Source: Candidatus Hermodarchaeota archaeon
Lineage (GTDB): Archaea; Asgardarchaeota; Thorarchaeia; Thorarchaeales; Thorarchaeaceae
DNA length: 64,000 nucleotides
Direction of reading: 5' to 3'
Assembly: GCA_048885865.1 (NCBI GenBank)
Contig: JBHLLF010000012.1
Span: 16,106-80,105, forward strand
In this document: one piece after another, positions 26,294-36,277 of the stretch
Position numbering within the stretch: position 1 is the stretch's first letter
Layout of the letters: each line of letters opens with the position of its first letter
The notes under the pieces: generated by a model
Seen by the model: only the letters and a program-made list of their open reading frames with translations
Databases searched by the model: none
Told to the model about the DNA's origin: nothing
Made by a program: the position numbers and the translations under genes

Positions 26294-27058
26294 TCAGACT
26301 ACCAGATTGTCCCCGCCCAGGAATGCACGTTGGAGCTCTCCATATAGGATTTCAACTCCATCCATGAGCTTTGCAGATACAGGTACGACAGGACTGCCCC
26401 CGCCGATGTCATCAAGCATACGAAGAATTGCACTGGAGTATTCTCGAACAAGACCAGTGGAACTGTCTTCGAGAGCCTCTTCCAGCAGGTAGGTGTCAGA
26501 TGACCATGATAGTATTTCATCTATTTGCTCCTCCATAAGGATATCAGGTTTGCTTAGAACGCCGATTTGAGGGAGACCAAAACGGATGCTTATCGAGATA
26601 CCAAGAAGCATTGAAGAAAGATATCCAACTGGCGTGCGAGCAATATTCGAATCAAGCAGATAGAGCGAAACAGCTGGATCTTGACCCATAAGGCTTGATA
26701 CCATCAGAGGTCCGGAGTTTCGATAGGCAAAAAGCTCCATTTGTCCGGGACAGTCAACCAAGACATAATCGCGTTCAAGTTCGAATATCTCTTCTCGCAT
26801 ATCACCCACATGACCTATAGCCATGTCCAGGGATGCAACAAGAGCACCATTTGGACCCAAACCAAACTGCTGCATCACTTCGCCATAGTTCACATATTCA
26901 CGGATATCGACATCACTTGTGTAAGGTGGATCATCTACTCCAGGATCAAGATTCACAACAGTGACGCTTGTTTCCGCCTCCACCAGCCATTTCTCAAGAG
27001 ATGATGTAAGAAGCGATTTTCCTGATCCCGCAGTGCCAACTAAGAATGTGAAGAACAT
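26294..27058 (-). CDS. GPN-loop GTPase
   Basis: GTAGSGKS, NLDPG, LGPNG, DCPGQMELF. Confidence 0.93.
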   Translation of the reverse strand: MFFTFLVGTAGSGKSLLTSSLEKWLVEAETSVTVVNLDPGVDDPPYTSDVDIREYVNYGEVMQQFGLGPNGALVASLDMAIGHVGDMREEIFELERDYVLVDCPGQMELFAYRNSGPLMVSSLMGQDPAVSLYLLDSNIARTPVGYLSSMLLGISISIRFGLPQIGVLSKPDILMEEQIDEILSWSSDTYLLEEALEDSSTGLVREYSSAILRMLDDIGGGSPVVPVSAKLMDGVEILYGELQRAFLGGDNLVV

Positions 27059-27176
27059 GACTTCAACCGAATTGCTTTGAGCAATGAGCTCTCTTTGAGT
27101 CCTTCGGTCGTATAGGTTAAGTGGCTACATATCACTTCGCAAATCTTTATCAGAAAAGCACCTTTGGAATCATGGT

Positions 27177-27917
27177 ATGGAAGGAAGTGAGGCATTGCAT
27201 AGGCTGGCCGAAGCCATGGCGGGAGAGATATGCCTCGCTGAGAATGATCCTGGAGCTGTGATGAAACGCTGGCGCGAGCGTTTTCAAATCTCTCAGAAAC
27301 ACTTGGCAAAACATCTAGGCGTATCGCCTTCTGTAATCAGCGATTATGAAAGCGGAAGAAGAAAATCACCTCGGGTTGAAACCATAAGGCGATTTGTTGA
27401 AGGCTTAATCGAGATGGACGCTGTTAATGGTGGAAGAGTTGCAATGGCACTTGAGAAACTCATAGCTCCAGAAATAGCATCTGATGCCATACTTGACAGT
27501 AGGGAATTTGGGTTACCTGTACCAGCACGTCTGCTAGTCGACCGTCTTGAATGCAAAATTCTCACACACAGTAATCTGCTAGATCGTGACATCTATGGTT
27601 ACACAGCGCTAGACAGTGTAAAGGCCATTGTCAGTTTGACACCACAGCAGCTTCTTCGACTGTATGGAGGAACCACTCAAAGGGCGGCAATTCTCACGAA
27701 CGTTACTACTGGACGTTCTCCCATGGTTGCAATAAAGGCGAGTCAGATTGGCACTTCTGCTGCAGTGAAGCCAGCTGTTGTAATATTACAAGGAGTTAAG
27801 GAGCTTGACCCACTTGCTGTCAAAATTGCAGACAGTATTCATCTACCTCTTTGCGTGTCAGACCTAGCTGCCGACGAATTGGTTCGAGAGTTAAGGTCAT
27901 TCAACCCACAGATGTAG
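27177..27917 (+). CDS. XRE-family HTH regulator with C-terminal DRTGG-like domain
   Basis: SQKHLA..LGVSPSVISDYESGRRKSP; GYT.LDS..AI; V.TGRSPMVAI. Confidence 0.88.
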   Translation: MEGSEALHRLAEAMAGEICLAENDPGAVMKRWRERFQISQKHLAKHLGVSPSVISDYESGRRKSPRVETIRRFVEGLIEMDAVNGGRVAMALEKLIAPEIASDAILDSREFGLPVPARLLVDRLECKILTHSNLLDRDIYGYTALDSVKAIVSLTPQQLLRLYGGTTQRAAILTNVTTGRSPMVAIKASQIGTSAAVKPAVVILQGVKELDPLAVKIADSIHLPLCVSDLAADELVRELRSFNPQM

Positions 27918-27934
27918 ACCATTGAGGGACCCTT

Positions 27935-29230
27935 ATGGATTTCATTATGGAGCTGAACGATCCTATCCATGGTTTCATCGGACTCACAGAACTTGAGTCC
28001 AAAGTTATTAACTCAAAGCCCTATCAACGACTGAGACGGATAAAGCAGCTCTCTGGTGGCCATTTCGTATACCCAGCAGCTGAACATACACGTTTCGGAC
28101 ACTGCATTGGTGCAATGTATCTAGCTGGTCTGACAGGAAAAAGGCTACTCGGACCAATGGATCTTGGTGATAAGACCTTTCAAGAGGTACGTATTTCGGG
28201 CCTTTTACATGACATGGGTCATGGTCCATTCAGTCATGTGTTTGAAGAGTCGCTTCTTGAACGAAGGGGTTGGAACCACGAAGACGTGACCGAGTGGATC
28301 ATCCGTGAAAGCGAGGTTGGAGACCTCCTTGAGGATGGTGGAATATCTAAGAACCGAATAGCCAACCTAGTTCGCGGAAGACGTGAAACCAAGACTGACT
28401 CAGTTGTTAGTTCCATCGTTGCAGGTCAAGTCGATGCTGATAAGATGGACTATCTGATTCGAGACTCATTCTATTGCGGGGTCAATTATGGTCTTGTTGA
28501 CATACATCGACTCATCAACAGTTTGGAAGTTTCTGATGATTTGATACTTGAATTCGACATTGCAGCCAGAGGCGCCCTGGAAGCATTCCTTGTTGCACGG
28601 TATGAGATGTTTCTCAATGTCTATTATCATAAAACAGTTCGCAGTGTTGAGGTAATGTTGGTCAAGCTCATGAATGCTGCAGACAGTGTTTTGGGATTGA
28701 CAAGCTTCTCAACTCCTGAGGAGTTTCTGAAACTAGATGATATGTCACTGATATCAAGAATTAGAAAGATTGACCCCACCGAGTCTGAGGATGCCAGAGA
28801 AGCCGTCACAATGGTAAACATGTTAGATTCGCGTATTCTGTACAAATCAGTATTCGAGAAGGTGCTGCATACCGAAGATCGTTTTGTTTCCAAAATTCTT
28901 ACGAAACGTAGAGTTAGAGAGAGCATTCAGGATGAGATTGCAGCATTAGCAGGTGTACCAGCCGATGAAGTAATCGTAGACGTACCTACTCTCCCATCAG
29001 TTCCCTATAATCCACATCAGCTCAATCCCATGGAGATACGAATCTTTGAGATGATTGATGGCAAGAAGGTGTCTCATAATCTCTCAGAATACTCAAACAT
29101 TGCAGAGATGATGAAGGTGTATCTCGATGTTATTCGTGTGTATACATTTGACCACAATCGTAGAAAGGTCGGGAAAGCAGCCCGTGAAGTCTTTCAAGAA
29201 GTCCCAGACGCCGCATTAATTCACATGTGA
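27935..29230 (+). CDS. HD-domain phosphohydrolase, SAMHD1/dNTP triphosphohydrolase-like
   Basis: DPIHG, QRLRRIKQL, HTRFGH, LLHDMGHGPFSH, DADKMDYLIRD, VYYHK. Confidence 0.9.
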   Translation: MDFIMELNDPIHGFIGLTELESKVINSKPYQRLRRIKQLSGGHFVYPAAEHTRFGHCIGAMYLAGLTGKRLLGPMDLGDKTFQEVRISGLLHDMGHGPFSHVFEESLLERRGWNHEDVTEWIIRESEVGDLLEDGGISKNRIANLVRGRRETKTDSVVSSIVAGQVDADKMDYLIRDSFYCGVNYGLVDIHRLINSLEVSDDLILEFDIAARGALEAFLVARYEMFLNVYYHKTVRSVEVMLVKLMNAADSVLGLTSFSTPEEFLKLDDMSLISRIRKIDPTESEDAREAVTMVNMLDSRILYKSVFEKVLHTEDRFVSKILTKRRVRESIQDEIAALAGVPADEVIVDVPTLPSVPYNPHQLNPMEIRIFEMIDGKKVSHNLSEYSNIAEMMKVYLDVIRVYTFDHNRRKVGKAAREVFQEVPDAALIHM

Positions 29231-29345
29231 TTATTGGCTAAGCTTAGCACAAACTCATACCACGAAGAACATAGTCTGTGTGGTGATTATATAGTAACCT
29301 CCGAGATTCTACATTGGACCATCTTCTAGGTCCGGAGCTGAACGA

Positions 29346-30293
29346 TTGACTGACGAGCTAACCGAAACGCTGCAAACCATAAAGATGATTGCCGGCGTTG
29401 AAAATGTAGTCCTAATTCAGAAGGATGGGCTTCCCGTTGCTAGTGCTGGGGTTTGGTTCAGCAAGGAAGAAGTATTCGCGGTCGCATCATCAACATGTGC
29501 AATCTATGGTGTTGCACGTCTTATCCATGGCGAATTCAAGTATCTTCTCATGGAGTCTGAAACCTCCAAAGTATTTCTTGCATCACTTCCCAATGATCCT
29601 GACTACTTCTTGACGGTTACAACAGCACCCAGAGTGAATCTTGCGGCGCTATTCATAGAGATGAAGGACAGTTTGTCTCGTGTTTCATTCTTGCTGCGAC
29701 AGCATGTGGATGGACGGCTCCCACCACTGCGCTCCTACAGTACCGATGAAACCCATCGCGTTCTTAGTGGATTCGCTGTGGCTGAAGGACAAGACACCTC
29801 CTATACCACATCACGGTCAATCATCTCACTTGACCGGTCTCAAGCTCTCACACTGAGAGCGCTACTACGGCAAGTTCATGATAGCATTCCTGATATCGAC
29901 TCGGTCTTTCTCTCTCTAAGTGGGGGCGTTCGTGTTTCTCTAGAGGGATTTACTAATGATAGACTTGCTGCAATGTCATTTGCACTACATGATGCATCAG
30001 AACGCGTGGTACGAACGCTCCGAAACAGCTCTCTTCAGACTGTTCTCTGCGAAGCGGGATCTACAAGACACTTCATCTATGCGGTGCCAAACGGGGTGTT
30101 CAGTCTTTGGGTAAATCGTGGTGGTCAAAAACTTGGTCTCATGCGGCTTCTACTGAAGCACTACATAGAGGAAATCAAGCGAGTTCTCAGTACTGCCGAA
30201 GTAATGCGTCCTTCAGTTCCGGATGATCTAAGGGAGCTGCTTCTAGCTGGCGGCAATGACAATGGAGTAGTTTTAGCGAGGCGAGAGCCATGA
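29346..30293 (+). CDS. Tandem roadblock/LC7 (MglB/LAMTOR-like) domain protein
   Basis: Two repeats: IAGVENVVLIQKDGLPVAS..VNLAALFIEMK and IPDIDSVFLSLSGG..LAAMS..KLGLMRLLLK, joined by a ~40-aa linker. Confidence 0.82.
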   Translation: MTDELTETLQTIKMIAGVENVVLIQKDGLPVASAGVWFSKEEVFAVASSTCAIYGVARLIHGEFKYLLMESETSKVFLASLPNDPDYFLTVTTAPRVNLAALFIEMKDSLSRVSFLLRQHVDGRLPPLRSYSTDETHRVLSGFAVAEGQDTSYTTSRSIISLDRSQALTLRALLRQVHDSIPDIDSVFLSLSGGVRVSLEGFTNDRLAAMSFALHDASERVVRTLRNSSLQTVLCEAGSTRHFIYAVPNGVFSLWVNRGGQKLGLMRLLLKHYIEEIKRVLSTAEVMRPSVPDDLRELLLAGGNDNGVVLARREP

Positions 30294-31210
30294 CTTATTC
30301 TATAATGCGAATGATTGAACTAATGGGGGACGATTTTCCGCTTCTGCTAAATTCCGTGATGAATCGCCTTCCTATCTTGGTAACTGGTCAAGATGTTGAA
30401 TTGGTAGATGACATCACTGAAAGCCTTACCATGCTATGCCCTCACCATCATAAGCTTGTGTTTTGGCGTGATTTCACCTCAGAAAGCGAGCTTCTTGCAG
30501 TATGGGAGGAAGAAAAGCACAACTATGAAGTTAGTAGGACCATAGTCTGTGGGCTTTCGTCAAACCTAAGACTGGCTCTAGAACGAATAACCAGATTTCC
30601 TGGGTGGCTTCTTGCAATCCCCATAGGAGCCAGTGTATTAGGAATGCATGTGGATGAAGAGATGATGCAGACAGTGATTCATCGAGTATTACAGCATTCC
30701 AGCAATTGTGGAATCTTGAGAGTAAATTCTCCTTCATCGATGAACTTCTCCCTCATAGAGTCATGTAGCAGCAATTTGGAAGTGGAGAAGAAGATAGTAA
30801 CTAAGATTCTGACCCGAAAACGTCAATCTCTTGAGAGAATCAGACGTCTTCTGAGAAAATCACTTCGTGGAGTCAATGTGTCAAGTGGCATCATAAATGC
30901 CGTTTTGAAGCTTGATGACGAATCTGAGAAACTAACACATGATGTGTTTGATGAAGAAATAAGCAACTACGTGCATGCAGCCAGAAGAGCAGTTACTCTG
31001 CTATCAAGAATCCGCCTGGCCAGGGAACTTGGTGCATCCACTGCACTGACTGAGAGGAATCTGTACGAAGCAATTGGATGGGAAGGCGGTGATCTGTCTG
31101 ATCTTATCCGATTCATCCGTGCAGAGTGGCACGAGGACTTTTCTGACTGCGTGAAGTCTGGTGCTTTATCGGGCCTCGGTGCATGGGTTGACAGTATGTG
31201 GGGAACGTAA
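30290..31210 (+). CDS. Hypothetical protein, putative stand-alone cDENN/dDENN (folliculin-C-like) domain
   Basis: FPLLLNSVMNRLPILVTGQDVELVDDITESLTMLCP fits the cDENN helix-strand-helix-P pattern; helical C-terminal half; ATGA overlap with the roadblock gene. Confidence 0.55.
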   Translation: MTYSIMRMIELMGDDFPLLLNSVMNRLPILVTGQDVELVDDITESLTMLCPHHHKLVFWRDFTSESELLAVWEEEKHNYEVSRTIVCGLSSNLRLALERITRFPGWLLAIPIGASVLGMHVDEEMMQTVIHRVLQHSSNCGILRVNSPSSMNFSLIESCSSNLEVEKKIVTKILTRKRQSLERIRRLLRKSLRGVNVSSGIINAVLKLDDESEKLTHDVFDEEISNYVHAARRAVTLLSRIRLARELGASTALTERNLYEAIGWEGGDLSDLIRFIRAEWHEDFSDCVKSGALSGLGAWVDSMWGT

Positions 31211-31225: not shown

Positions 31226-31804
31226 ATGATTATAGACTATGGTACTCGTACGGTCGGTCTCAAGATAGTGTTCTTTGGTCCTGCAATGAGTGGTAAAACC
31301 ACTGCCATAAGATGGCTTTTCTCGAGCCTTGATTATGCAGACAAACTGACATCCATTGAGAACACTGTTGGCAGGACCATGTTCTGCGATTTTGGCACAA
31401 TTCCATTTGCATTGGGAGACAGCTGGAAAATCAACGCTCATATATGGTCAGCAACTGGTCAAGACTTCTATAGGTCAACTAGAGAAGTGGTCCTTGTAGG
31501 TGCAGATGGAGTCATTTTCATGGTTGACTCTCAGGAACACCTATTGCAGGAGAATCAGGCAAGTTGGAACGAGCTGGTGGCATTGGTGGCGGAGGAGGAG
31601 CGACCACTGCCAATAGTTGTCTGCCTTAACAAACAAGACCTTCCCGGAGCAGTTCAAGAAGACGAAATACGGGTACACCTAAGACTTCCACGCTCAATCC
31701 CTGTGTTCAAAAGCATAGCCAAAGATGGCTTTAACATTCTGGAGGCATTTCAGCATCTCTTTCGAGACGCCATGCGAGCAAGTGTTCTCACGAAGCCAAT
31801 TTAG
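31226..31804 (+). CDS. MglA/Arf-like small GTPase
   Basis: G1 GPAMSGKTT, G2 GRTMFCDF, G3 SATGQ, GADGVIFMVDSQ, G4 NKQD, G5 SIA. Confidence 0.9.
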   Translation: MIIDYGTRTVGLKIVFFGPAMSGKTTAIRWLFSSLDYADKLTSIENTVGRTMFCDFGTIPFALGDSWKINAHIWSATGQDFYRSTREVVLVGADGVIFMVDSQEHLLQENQASWNELVALVAEEERPLPIVVCLNKQDLPGAVQEDEIRVHLRLPRSIPVFKSIAKDGFNILEAFQHLFRDAMRASVLTKPI

Positions 31805-31925: not shown

Positions 31926-33602
31926 TTGAACACAAATCAAGATCAGACCCGCTTTGTTTTTGTTACAGGGGGCGTACTCTCCGGGATTGGAAAAGGTGTC
32001 ACAACAGCGTCGATTGCAAAGCTTTTCCAATTTCGGGGATACAAAATCGGAATAATGAAAATAGACCCCTATCTGAACATTGATCCCGGAACATTGAACC
32101 CTGTTGAGCATGGCGAGGTGTTTGTGACAGATCAGCCATGGGCCTTTTGTCCTGCGGAAGGTTTTGAGTTCATAATCTCTGAGATTGATTTGGATTTTGG
32201 TACATATGAGCGCTTTACTGGGCTGGAAGTGCATCCCTCTCAAAACATCACATCAGGTCAGATCTACATTTCAGTAATTCTAGGAGAACGAAAAGGGAGC
32301 TTCCTAGGCAGAACCGTTCAGATAATTCCTCATGTCACAGATAGGATAAAACATCGAATCTGGAAGGTGGTAGAAGAACAAAAACCCGATGTGCTGCTGG
32401 TGGAAATAGGAGGCACGGCAGGGGATATCGAGGCGATGCCATTTCTTGAGGCTGTTCGTCAGTTGATCAGTGAAGTAGGTCATGAAAGAGTTGCTCTTGT
32501 ACATGTGACTCTTGTTCCCTACATGGGCTCTGTTGGAGAGTTCAAGACCAAACCAACCCAACATAGTGTCAGGACTCTTCAAGGTCTTGGTCTTCAGCCC
32601 GATGTCATAATTTGCCGAGCTGAAAGGGAGTTGCCTCCTTCGGCGGAAAGCAAGATTGCTCTCTTCTGCAACGTTCCTGAAAATAGGGTTATCTCCAATC
32701 CCGATATCCCGGTCATCTATAGGCTGCCACTGTCATTCGAGGATCAAGGTCTCGGAAGCATTCTAACCAATCATTTAGGTCTAGAAGACAATCCGCCTGA
32801 CATTGAACAATGGCTTGAAATGGTGAAGAGGTTTGAATCTCCTACTGACAGTCTAATCATTGCAATGCCCGGGAAATATACGACACTCAGTGATTCCTAC
32901 AAGAGTATCAATGAGGCGATTTACCATGCTGCTGCAGCTTGCGGTGCTCGAGTGACAATCAAGTGGATTGAAACTGAAGAGCGTTGCGATGAGGCAAGCC
33001 TTCGTGAGGACTTGAAGGACGTAGATGGAGTGCTCTTGACACCAGGATTCGGTGAACGTGGTGTCGAAGGCATGATTTGTGCTGCTACACTGACCTTTGA
33101 TCTTGAGATTCCACTATTAGGAATCTGTTATGGCGCTCAGCTTGGAACCGTAGCTTTTGCAAGGAAAATGATGGACTGGAAGGGTGCACATACCACAGAA
33201 GTAGATGCGGACAGTCTCTATCCTGTCATAGACCTAATGGACGAGCAAAAGAACGTAGATGACAAAGGCGGGACAATGCGTCTGGGCGGTCATGAAGTAT
33301 CGATTCTAGAGGGAACAAAGCTCCACAGTATTTATGGAAAGACAACCACTAAAGAGAGGTTCAGACACAGATTCCATCTCATCGACAGGTATGTCAATAG
33401 AATGAAGGAACAAGGATTAATCGTTTCTGCGTATGATACCAGCGGTGAGATAATCAATGCTGTGGAACTTGTCGATCATCCTTTCTGGATAGGTGTTCAA
33501 TTCCATCCGGAGTTCAAGTCTCGTCCTGACTCTCCACACCCTCTCTACTTGGGCCTTATTAGAGCAGCTCTGGAATATAAGAAACAGAGAGGGAAAGCGT
33601 AG
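31926..33602 (+). CDS. pyrG: CTP synthase
   Basis: GGVLSGIGKG, DPYLNIDPGT, KTKPTQHS, GICYG, QFHPEF. Confidence 0.97.
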   Translation: MNTNQDQTRFVFVTGGVLSGIGKGVTTASIAKLFQFRGYKIGIMKIDPYLNIDPGTLNPVEHGEVFVTDQPWAFCPAEGFEFIISEIDLDFGTYERFTGLEVHPSQNITSGQIYISVILGERKGSFLGRTVQIIPHVTDRIKHRIWKVVEEQKPDVLLVEIGGTAGDIEAMPFLEAVRQLISEVGHERVALVHVTLVPYMGSVGEFKTKPTQHSVRTLQGLGLQPDVIICRAERELPPSAESKIALFCNVPENRVISNPDIPVIYRLPLSFEDQGLGSILTNHLGLEDNPPDIEQWLEMVKRFESPTDSLIIAMPGKYTTLSDSYKSINEAIYHAAAACGARVTIKWIETEERCDEASLREDLKDVDGVLLTPGFGERGVEGMICAATLTFDLEIPLLGICYGAQLGTVAFARKMMDWKGAHTTEVDADSLYPVIDLMDEQKNVDDKGGTMRLGGHEVSILEGTKLHSIYGKTTTKERFRHRFHLIDRYVNRMKEQGLIVSAYDTSGEIINAVELVDHPFWIGVQFHPEFKSRPDSPHPLYLGLIRAALEYKKQRGKA

Positions 33603-34759
33603 TGGACCATAACCTTGACTCAATGCTTGCCATATTGGTCGAGGAGATAGAACGTGTTGAGGACACTAGAAAGCGGTTTGGGTCAGTTCTATCACGAATC
33701 AAAGGGGAGCTGGATCTGGGTCGATATCCTGCACTTGCAGCAGACGCTGTGGAAACACAATTCTCTAAGATGATTGACCCCACAGACCTGTCTGGGCTAA
33801 GAATTGCAGGAGTTGATGGTGGTCTTATTAGAAGACGGTTCAGATCAATAGATTTGATACTCACTCGTGGCATAGCGGTGGTCTTTCAATTCGGTCCAGA
33901 AGAAGGTCCAAGGGTGGATTTCTTTCCAAGTGCTTTTCCTGAGCCCAGTATCAGACCAGTGATGCTTACATTACCGAGCCCAGAACTTGACCAACTTGGG
34001 TCCCTTGAACGCATTGCCGCAGAATTAAGAGTCACCCTATCTATCCTCGATGAATTCTATGTTGACCTGATTTTAGTAGATGGATCCCTGTTCTATCATC
34101 CCCGAGACCGACCAAGCATTGGGTCAGCTGTCTACGAGAAGTTTCAGGAAGTAGTGGCTCTGTATAGGCAGCTCTATCATAAGGCCAGAGAAAAGAGGAC
34201 AACCTTAGCAGGGATAGTAAAGGATAGTCGATCAACTCGAATAGTCAATATCCTAAGTGACATTCTTCCACATATTCTGCGTAATCCAGGCATTTTTGAA
34301 ATGATGCAAGGAGTCGACTACCGTTGGCTTCTCAAATTCTCTAGAGACTGTGATCTTCTTGACACATTTCTCGAGGAGGGTGAACGGACGTTTGCCTTCA
34401 AGTATTCAGCTGAGTTGACACAAAACACAAATTCTCTCTCAGACGATCTTTCGAAATGGGCATCTTCGATTTGGGTCACATACTTGAAGACTGCGCGTGA
34501 TGACCTCCCTATCAGAATAGAGATTCTTGTTGATGAAAGCAATGGGACTGCACAGATAGATAAGGCTCTCTCAGCTATTCTCCCTCTCTCTTGGCAGCAT
34601 CCTGAGTATGGGATCCCTACTCCAGTGCTGGAAGCAGATGCACGAGCACGAATCAGTAACAACGAAACACAACTCATTGTCGATCGATTGATGGCTCTTT
34701 CCGGTCTTACCTATGCGACACTTGAGAGAAGACGTTCAAGAAACCCATTTGGAGGTTAA
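33602..34759 (+). CDS. nurA: DNA double-strand break repair nuclease NurA
   Basis: AGVDGG, ELR, LVDGSL, GIVKDS, YGIPTPVLEAD..ARI; upstream of herA. Confidence 0.88.
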   Translation: MDHNLDSMLAILVEEIERVEDTRKRFGSVLSRIKGELDLGRYPALAADAVETQFSKMIDPTDLSGLRIAGVDGGLIRRRFRSIDLILTRGIAVVFQFGPEEGPRVDFFPSAFPEPSIRPVMLTLPSPELDQLGSLERIAAELRVTLSILDEFYVDLILVDGSLFYHPRDRPSIGSAVYEKFQEVVALYRQLYHKAREKRTTLAGIVKDSRSTRIVNILSDILPHILRNPGIFEMMQGVDYRWLLKFSRDCDLLDTFLEEGERTFAFKYSAELTQNTNSLSDDLSKWASSIWVTYLKTARDDLPIRIEILVDESNGTAQIDKALSAILPLSWQHPEYGIPTPVLEADARARISNNETQLIVDRLMALSGLTYATLERRRSRNPFGG

Positions 34760-34762
34760 TAT

Positions 34763-36277
34763 TTGTCTGAAATATCATCATTCACACCAATTGGTACCGT
34801 CATCTGCGAGCAAGACTCACCCAACGTCATGGAGTTTTCTTTCGTTGTTGAAGGGGAAGCTCATGAGCTGGTAGTAAGACGGGGCGAGTTCGTTTCAATA
34901 GCAAACGACGATCAGACAGTCATTGCTAGAGTACAAGACCTAGTGAGAGTCAACCGATATTACCAGCATGCCGAGGCCGTAAGAGAATACCAATCTAGAG
35001 GAGAGCCGCTCCGCTCAATCTTTCCTACTGACCGCTGGCAATATACTATTGCTAGAGCCCAAGTCCTTGGTCTGTGGTCCGAAAACAGGTCAGTCCGTCC
35101 ATACTTCGCCGTATCTCCAGGAGCACGAGTAAGCAAGGCAGACAGCGAAGTGCTGGCTGCTTTTCTGAATCTTGATGACACGGATGGACTCAACTTAGGT
35201 ACTCTGGCTCATCACACTCTGGAGTTCAAACCATCTATCAACCGGCTCCTTTCAAAACATCTTGCCATATTAGCCATGAGTGGTGCGGGGAAGTCCTACT
35301 TTGTTTCCGTCCTTCTTGAAGAGCTTTTAGCACGCACAAAGAAACAAGGTAGGCTGGCTGTGATTGTTGTCGACGTGCATGGAGAATACACCTACCTACA
35401 GGGCCTCACAAATGACGTATTGGGTGAGCCAGACCTCGAAATCGATATAGAGCATATTCGAGGGTCACACATCCAAATTCCAGTACAATCCCTGGCTGCT
35501 GAAGCCATAGGGTCTCTTGTTGCTGACATGAGTGCCATTCAAGTTCGTGATCTAAGGCGTGTAGTTTCTATAATGCGAAAGGACGCAAAGAATGGCTATA
35601 CACTTGGTGATATCATTGACTATGTCAGGACTGATGAAACCATCAGTAAGAACACAAGAGAGGCTCTTGTAGGATGGCTTGTTAATCTAGAAGAAACCGG
35701 ATTATTCGGCAAGGAAGGTATTCCGAATCTTAAGAGCATCATTAAACCTGGGAAGCTGACCCTCATTGACTTGAGTGACTTCATCAGTTTAAAGAAGAAG
35801 CAAATCGTCGTGTCACATTTAGTGAGCGAGCTCATGTTTCTGAGGCGCCGAGGTTCAATTCCTCCATTTCTTTTGGTCTTGGAAGAAGCCCACCAGTTTT
35901 GTCCGGAGAGCCGGCATGAGCTTGCCCTTCCTAAGAGTCGAATCGAAACTATAGCACGGGAAGGACGCAAGTTCTTCGCATTACTCTGTTTGGTTTCACA
36001 AAGACCCGTGAAACTCTCGACGACCGTGTTGAGTCAGTGCAGCAATCAAGCAATCCTCAGAGCAACGAATCCATATGACCTCGAACATATTGGGCGTAGT
36101 AGTGAAGGCATCGACCGAGCGTCATTAGACACCATAACCACACTCGAAGTAGGAGAGGCTCTTTTTGTTGGGGAAACAGTTTCGGTTCCTACTTTTGTTA
36201 AGATTCGAAGGAGGCACTTTGAGCCATCTGGGCTCACCCAAGGTCTATCTGAGGCGCTGAAAAAGGCTGACAAATAG
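34763..36277 (+). CDS. herA: HerA helicase (HAS-barrel plus ATPase)
   Basis: HLAILAMSGAGKS, DVHGEY, LEEAHQF, AREGRKF, SQRP. Confidence 0.92.
   Translation: MSEISSFTPIGTVICEQDSPNVMEFSFVVEGEAHELVVRRGEFVSIANDDQTVIARVQDLVRVNRYYQHAEAVREYQSRGEPLRSIFPTDRWQYTIARAQVLGLWSENRSVRPYFAVSPGARVSKADSEVLAAFLNLDDTDGLNLGTLAHHTLEFKPSINRLLSKHLAILAMSGAGKSYFVSVLLEELLARTKKQGRLAVIVVDVHGEYTYLQGLTNDVLGEPDLEIDIEHIRGSHIQIPVQSLAAEAIGSLVADMSAIQVRDLRRVVSIMRKDAKNGYTLGDIIDYVRTDETISKNTREALVGWLVNLEETGLFGKEGIPNLKSIIKPGKLTLIDLSDFISLKKKQIVVSHLVSELMFLRRRGSIPPFLLVLEEAHQFCPESRHELALPKSRIETIAREGRKFFALLCLVSQRPVKLSTTVLSQCSNQAILRATNPYDLEHIGRSSEGIDRASLDTITTLEVGEALFVGETVSVPTFVKIRRRHFEPSGLTQGLSEALKKADK

Follow-up and report, generated by a model that had tools for sequence, protein, structure and literature searches.

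The window analyzed here is a stretch of 64,000 nucleotides (nt) from Candidatus Hermodarchaeota archaeon, a member of the Asgard phylum (GTDB Thorarchaeia; GenBank assembly GCA_048885865.1, contig JBHLLF010000012.1, positions 16,106 to 80,105 of the forward strand), and it carries three consecutive genes of interest on the plus strand. Gene 1 (29346..30293) begins with a TTG start codon and encodes a single-chain tandem Roadblock/LC7 protein of 315 amino acids (aa). Gene 2 (30290..31210) encodes a putative stand-alone cDENN-dDENN protein of 306 aa, and gene 3 (31226..31804), located 15 nt after the DENN gene, encodes a putative MglA-type small GTPase of 192 aa. It is very likely that gene 2 specifies the cDENN and dDENN subdomains without a longin/uDENN domain, and that its product is the middle subunit of a Roadblock/DENN/GTPase module. 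DENN-module proteins, including the DENND1-like guanine nucleotide exchange factors (GEFs) of Rab GTPases, folliculin (FLCN)-FNIP and C9orf72-SMCR8, control membrane traffic and lysosomal nutrient signalling in eukaryotes, and DENN modules were long held to be eukaryote-specific. The presence of an Asgard DENN protein in a compact operon with a Roadblock protein and a small GTPase bears on the origin of eukaryotic GTPase regulation; the window provides one more example of a published Asgard operon and is not a discovery.

The DENN gene, its family and its predicted fold

The open reading frame (ORF) at 30290-31210 had been singled out in a sequence-only reading as a DENN-like protein lacking a longin domain, and it is present on the plus strand with 306 codons for amino acids. 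Its ATG start at position 30290 overlaps the TGA stop codon of gene 1 by 4 bp (ATGA) and its homologues align from residue 1, both of which support this ATG as the true start. A word-indexed search returned 228 homologues at E ≤ 1e-3, of which those with 75-97% identity come from metagenome-assembled genomes of Thorarchaeota; all are unnamed or labelled "hypothetical protein", the annotation that the sequence-only reading had predicted for this gene and one that fits the lack of any Pfam or NCBIfam match. An exhaustive search yielded 63 representatives at 50% identity, mostly of ~300 aa and with identity down to ~20%. The family profile matches 231 of 400 Asgard genomes, including 66 of the 90 of high quality, in most cases with one copy per genome, and these counts together with the homologues indicate a genuine gene rather than a chance ORF. 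Across the family alignment (A1), R26 and P28 are invariant and the charged positions R26, E75, R83, E166, E211 and E279 are invariant or nearly so. No membrane, enzymatic or nucleic-acid binding domain was found in the 306 aa by Pfam scan or in the structural model.

The AlphaFold2 model of the DENN protein, built on a 35-sequence alignment, has a predicted local distance difference test (pLDDT) score of 90 and a predicted template modelling (pTM) score of 0.85, with low confidence confined to the final ~15 residues. In this model, the cDENN subdomain (residues 1-157; 30290..30760, plus strand) is a three-layer alpha/beta sandwich of P-loop-NTPase-like topology, with strands at residues 29-33, 54-58, 84-88, 106-111, 141-147 and 150-155 and helices in between. 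The dDENN subdomain (residues 164-303; 30779..31198, plus strand) is all-helical, comprising segments at residues 164-191, 199-205, 209-246, 255-262, 269-280 and 292-303. This architecture agrees with the alternating beta/alpha elements and the following helical bundle that had been read from the sequence.

The DENN module (Levivier 2001; Zhang et al. 2012, PMC3521125) is tripartite, and of its elements the central alpha/beta core and the all-helical dDENN directly after it are present in the AlphaFold2 model and in the structural alignments described below, while an N-terminal uDENN/longin domain in the same chain is absent. The first cDENN helix begins at residue 5, leaving no room for a longin/uDENN domain, and the gene product is therefore a cDENN-dDENN protein and not a complete DENN module. 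The earlier statement that the protein starts directly with the segment it quoted was right to within ~10 residues, as that segment begins at residue 12, after MTYSIMRMIE. The absence of a longin domain also agrees with the search for longer, fused homologues, in which none were found, although this is weak evidence.

Structural matches were obtained with two aligners: Foldseek against the PDB and, independently of Foldseek, VIA-align against 48,161 chains. Among the top nine Foldseek matches are FLCN (6ulg, 8dhb, 3v42, 6nzd), which ranks first, DENND1A/B and C9orf72-SMCR8, followed by DENND10 at rank 12 and a further C9orf72-SMCR8 entry at rank 14; these DENN-clan matches have probabilities of 0.72-1.0 and E-values of 3.5e-3 to 5e-2. 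In VIA-align, five DENN proteins rank first. The best is DENND10 (8p0v_M), in which residues 157-357 of the chain align with residues 3-285 of the model (Z 13.4, 187 residues), followed by the C-terminal domain of FLCN (3v42_B, with 6nzd_H at the same Z), in which chain residues 345-558 align with model residues 1-282 (Z 12.8, root-mean-square deviation (rmsd) 3.5 Å, 187 residues). C9orf72 (7o2w_A, chain residues 202-467, Z 11.1), SMCR8 (6lt0_B, 705-913, Z 10.9), DENND1A (6ekk_A, 170-374, Z 8.9) and FNIP2 (6ulg_N, 416-1105, Z 7.2) also match. All of the DENN-clan matches listed cover model residues 1 to ~285, and hence both subdomains, with the alignments of DENND10, FLCN, C9orf72 and SMCR8 reaching model residues 282-291. 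The likeness to DENN and to the folliculin C-terminal domain proposed from sequence is thus borne out by the top structural matches of both aligners, and the outcome that had been named as refuting it, in which unrelated alpha/beta folds would be the best matches in a fold search with the predicted structure, did not occur.

P-loop and RecA-type ATPases follow the five leading DENN proteins in VIA-align and are interspersed among the further matches, confined to model residues 1-159. Such matches to the first subdomain are expected, since the central DENN domain resembles a minimal P-loop NTPase in topology but lacks the nucleotide-binding residues (Zhang et al. 2012, PMC3521125). No Walker A motif (GxxxxGK[ST]) is present in the DENN protein; strand 1 is followed by VTGQDVELVDD, a segment for which the family has the consensus G-x5-VD.

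Further signals specific to the DENN clan come from searches with homologues, where they are weak, and from the ESM Atlas. Pfam Folliculin_C matches two of the 35 DENN homologues (best E 4.8e-4) and is the sole Pfam family to recur, while Pfam DENN matches one of the 35 weakly (E 0.09). The feature (language-model) search of the ESM Atlas returned C9orf72-like, Folliculin_C/SMCR8_C, SPA, DENND11 and Avl9 at 0.85-0.96, and its shape search returned SMCR8, Avl9/DENND11, a Heimdall Folliculin-like cluster and FLCN. The Pfam Folliculin_C profile gave no match in the window's own genome, a result that is uninformative as the control genomes were silent too. The shape search also returned two clusters with a template modelling score (TM-score) of ~0.5 in both directions, one of 289-aa proteins from Chloroflexota (bacteria) to which no Pfam family is assigned and one of 282-aa Promethearchaeota proteins labelled "CpXC domain"; these could be stand-alone DENN-like proteins beyond the known range, or mere P-loop-like look-alikes.

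Several results weigh against the DENN assignment. Pfam and NCBIfam scans of the protein itself gave no match, with none in Pfam even at E ≤ 1, and a phmmer search with the protein found no PDB sequence at E ≤ 10. The family profile A1 matched PDB sequences only of ferritin-type helical proteins (E ~0.007), which were judged spurious. In addition, the Foldseek E-values are modest (from 3.5e-3) and the whole-chain TM-scores are low (0.3-0.4), probably owing to a different orientation of the two DENN subdomains.

Partner proteins and conservation of the operon

The Roadblock protein encoded by gene 1 has a Pfam Robl_LC7 match at residues 7-91 (E 1.2e-8), and its second repeat matches cvnB5 (3leq) weakly by sequence. 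In its AlphaFold2 model (pLDDT 78), residues 1-118 and residues 159-282 each form a complete Roadblock fold with the order alpha-beta-beta-alpha-beta-beta-beta-alpha, and the best Foldseek matches are MK-D1 Roadblock3, LAMTOR2, Thor Roadblock and MglB, with TM-scores to target of 0.7-0.86. In the model, the two folds are predicted to form an MglB/LAMTOR2-like pseudo-dimer in one chain. This protein was also considered as the supplier of the longin domain missing from the DENN protein, and was rejected in that role as Roadblock proteins match it best and Mon1/Ccz1 yield only long alignments of high rmsd. Upstream of gene 1, a Shine-Dalgarno-like GGAG motif (29334-29337, plus strand) lies 8 nt before the TTG start, and TTATATA (29287..29293, plus strand), read from the sequence ~55 nt upstream of the gene, resembles an archaeal TATA box and is a possible promoter element.

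The GTPase encoded by gene 3 has its best PDB sequence matches to MglA (E 5e-29, 104 bits), while the Arf/Arl/Rab matches reach ~1e-9 to 1e-8, with Arf and Rab at no more than 43 bits. Against Pfam, it matches Arf with E 4e-13 and Gtr1_RagA merely with E 1.3e-3. Alignment with Myxococcus xanthus MglA (6hjh_A) identifies the P-loop GPAMSGKTT and an NKQD motif, and aligns the switch I sequence GRT to the DRT of MglA, within which Arg53 is the predicted intrinsic arginine finger. The sequence WSATGQ aligns to YTVPGQ of MglA, with a serine in place of the G3 aspartate and the glutamine retained. The P-loop, GRT, WSATGQ-type and NKQD features are conserved in 25 GTPase orthologues across the phylum. 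The switch I arginine, the replaced G3 aspartate, the retained glutamine and the closest similarity to MglA place the operon GTPase, by sequence, in the MglA family.

Of 56 loci, gathered by contig look-ups and from 13 GTDB families of the Asgard phylum, 53 have the three genes collinear and co-oriented in the order Roadblock-DENN-GTPase; the loci are not independent, as ~30 belong to one family. The three exceptions are a locus at a contig end (L014), a DENN gene alone (L051) and a locus with two DENN paralogues (L002). The last of these (L002:3052-4936; GCA_054681365.1, BAAHGB010000007.1) encodes tandem DENN paralogues of 304 and 311 aa that are 26% identical (E 2e-21); no tandem Roadblock or GTPase gene is adjacent to the pair, which adjoins UvrD-helicase and PD-(D/E)XK genes. 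By analogy with FLCN-FNIP, the two paralogues may form a DENN-DENN heterodimer.

The tandem-Roadblock profile gives strong matches (E < 1e-50) in the same families as the DENN profile; where the DENN gene is missing (e.g., families f8, f10, f11 and f13), the Roadblock profile gives matches of a generic Roadblock level, ~1e-11, or none. At the thresholds used, the DENN gene, like its tandem Roadblock partner, is absent from all genomes searched of these four well-sampled families (0/31 in f8, 0/22 in f11, 0/12 in f10 and 0/12 in f13). This shared distribution indicates that the DENN and tandem Roadblock genes are gained and lost together. Heimdall proteins of 380 aa that match the Folliculin (longin) family of Pfam form an ESM Atlas cluster similar to the DENN model in shape, and some of the Asgard lineages without the DENN gene may carry a fused longin-DENN form instead.

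Relation to known systems and proposed function

An operon of Roadblock, small GTPase and DENN genes conserved in most Asgard archaea was described by Liu et al. (bioRxiv 10.1101/2020.10.19.343400, Fig. 5b; Nature 2021), whose text states that the GTPase is distinct from the Rag family, draws the comparison with FLCN and Ragulator and proposes GEF activity. At the window, the DENN gene is accompanied by an adjacent, co-oriented Roadblock gene and a non-Rag small GTPase gene in an arrangement conserved in Asgard archaea, and, matched on the text of that paper, it almost certainly belongs to the same family. The DENN assignment is thus correct, and both the family and the operon have been known since 2020/2021. 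Later papers list DENN domains among the established Asgard eukaryotic signature proteins and also treat Asgard longins of the FLCN/SMCR8 type. Our literature search found no biochemical study of the Asgard Roadblock/DENN/GTPase operon and, for DENN, Asgard and MglA together, nothing beyond a passing list. The present analysis differs from the text of Liu et al. in two respects: the GTPase, there called "Rab-like", has MglA hallmarks and matches MglA with E 5e-29 as against ~1e-8 for Rab, and the Roadblock protein, there called "LAMTOR1-like", is a tandem two-domain chain nearest to LAMTOR2, MglB and MK-D1 Roadblock3. What is added here is modest, namely the MglA-type partner GTPase, the single-chain Roadblock pseudo-dimer predicted by modelling and the shared phyletic pattern of the two regulators.

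Among characterized proteins, FLCN is like the DENN protein in combining a cDENN core with a helical dDENN, at an identity of 12-13%, and in working beside Roadblock proteins (Ragulator and the Rag C-terminal domains) and a small GTPase. FLCN has its own N-terminal longin domain with a catalytic arginine and an FNIP partner (complexes 6nzd, 6ulg and 8dhb), whereas the Asgard protein has no longin, a different polypeptide carries the Roadblock domains and the GTPase is of the MglA type rather than Rag. DENND10 (FAM45A; chain M of the Commander complex 8p0v), the best VIA-align match, differs in having an N-terminal uDENN/longin lobe (residues ~1-150, unmatched) and in being a structural subunit of a eukaryotic endosomal complex. 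The DENND1A/B-Rab35 GEF (6ekk, 3tw8), the paradigm of DENN-mediated nucleotide exchange, shares the DENN fold (Z 8.9, Foldseek probability 0.72-0.93); it has a fused tripartite module and a Rab substrate, and scores below the FLCN/C9orf72 group.

The GTPase and Roadblock partners are homologous to MglA and MglB of Myxococcus and Thermus (3t12, 6h5b, 6izw). MglB, a homodimer of Roadblock subunits, binds MglA and serves as its GTPase-activating protein (GAP), a pairing visible in 3t12 and 6h5b, and the 2:1 stoichiometry of MglB to MglA in the PDB complexes is mimicked by the tandem Roadblock chain of the operon. The operon is unlike MglAB in joining the Roadblock domains in one protein and in having a DENN gene between the Roadblock and GTPase genes. 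The GEF of bacterial MglAB is RomR-RomX, and we are not aware of any report of a DENN protein in these bacterial systems. The apparent MglA-type character of the partner GTPase connects DENN modules with the MglA/MglB switch of prokaryotes, which has been proposed as the source of longin domains by way of MglB-like Roadblock domains (Zhang et al. 2012, PMC3521125).

All three proteins are probably translated together and join in one assembly. The homologous MglB dimer suggests that the tandem Roadblock protein would bind the GTPase 1:1 and act as platform and GAP, and the DENN protein would dock beside the Roadblock/GTPase pair, such that Roadblock and cDENN-dDENN may rebuild in trans the tripartite DENN module that eukaryotes have fused. 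In that module, longin, DENN and d-DENN all contact Rab (Zhang et al. 2012, PMC3521125). By analogy with eukaryotic complexes, the role of the DENN protein could be either nucleotide exchange, as in DENND1-Rab35, or that of a non-catalytic scaffold half, as in FLCN-FNIP and C9orf72-SMCR8. What supports binding of the DENN protein to a small GTPase, as a GEF or within a GAP complex, is its conserved operon linkage with the MglA-type GTPase.

The proposal that the DENN protein is the GEF of the adjacent GTPase draws on the DENND1 analogy, and we consider it plausible, at somewhat below an even chance. Two points from eukaryotic systems speak against it: the catalytic residue of FLCN-FNIP and C9orf72-SMCR8 is on the longin domain and not on DENN, and the known substrates of DENN GEFs are Rabs, not MglA-type GTPases. 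There is also a fair, though minority, prospect that the DENN protein serves as a scaffold or dimerization partner without catalysis of its own and that the tandem Roadblock protein would perform all regulation of the GTPase, as GAP and possibly also as GEF. The DENN protein would then do no more than stabilize or localize the complex, like the DENN domains of FLCN-FNIP2 and C9orf72-SMCR8. The closest structures, FLCN, C9orf72, SMCR8 and DENND10, are of the non-GEF or scaffold type, with FLCN and DENND10 at Z 12.8-13.4 versus 8.9 for DENND1, and, as the GTPase retains the arginine that aligns with the MglA switch I DRT, a Roadblock GAP could do without an arginine finger. The tandem DENN paralogues of the one genome without an adjacent GTPase gene suggest DENN-DENN pairing, and Tran et al. 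quote a dual GEF/GAP activity for MglB. The charged positions R26, E75, R83, E166, E211 and E279, which vary little or not at all in the family alignment, may speak against a scaffold role, and the strict operon linkage with one GTPase equally suits a direct regulator.

It is improbable that the DENN protein is instead a downstream effector of the GTP form of the MglA-type GTPase, relaying its signal elsewhere. Operon linkage alone separates no regulator from an effector, and the housekeeping neighbours (HD-domain protein, NurA/HerA) give no clue to a pathway; nevertheless, the 306 aa contain no further domain (membrane, enzymatic or nucleic-acid binding), and the characterized DENN-clan proteins among the matches all belong to GEF or GAP complexes. 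A degenerate P-loop/RecA-like ATPase with a helical tail that came to look like DENN by convergence is very improbable and was rejected, for although residues 1-159 align to PilT/GspE/VirB11/RecA-type ATPases (VIA-align, Z 7-10), a type II secretion system ATPase cluster is among the ESM Atlas shape matches and DENN itself shares the minimal P-loop-NTPase-like topology (Zhang et al. 2012, PMC3521125), the ATPase matches end at ~159, the DENN matches run on through the helices of the second subdomain with higher scores, the Walker A motif is absent, and the feature and weak Pfam signals are specific to Folliculin_C, C9orf72-like, SPA and DENND11.

Returning to the assignment of gene 2 as a cDENN-dDENN subunit of the module, we suggest, as a speculation more doubtful than the GEF proposal, that the operon keeps the eukaryotic DENN module in its unfused form, in which a pair of MglB-type Roadblock domains and a cDENN-dDENN protein on a chain of its own would together regulate a GTPase of the MglA type, not a Rab or Rag. 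If so, DENN would have arisen as an accessory of the archaeal MglA/MglB switch, been fused later to a longin derivative and subsequently been retargeted to Rab, Rag and Arf GTPases. This point is absent from the published accounts consulted, which term the GTPase "Rab-like". The small sizes of the three proteins (192-315 aa) make an expression-based test practical.

Flanking genes and additional operon copies

The regions flanking the operon in the window (26294-29230 and 31926-36277) encode a GPN-loop GTPase (ATP_bind_1, minus strand), an XRE-type helix-turn-helix protein, a protein with HD and HD_assoc_2 domains, and a NurA-HerA pair, as identified by Pfam; the GPN-loop GTPase and NurA/HerA are typical of archaea. 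The 558-aa ORF at 31926-33602 resembles CTP synthase and may encode one. These are unrelated housekeeping genes and point to no pathway for the GTPase module.

Elsewhere in the phylum, two genomes of family f18 (G126 and G127; loci L047, L048 and L049) carry two complete Roadblock-DENN-GTPase operons on different contigs. The loci of family f22 (genera g69, g70 and g71) encode a second small GTPase of 226-231 aa, with E ~1e-18 to the operon GTPase, whose gene lies ~500 bp past that of the operon GTPase on the opposite strand in a convergent orientation (L044:781-1467, L045:732-1412, L052:4512-5198, L053:660-1349, L054:679-1359 and L055:705-1400).

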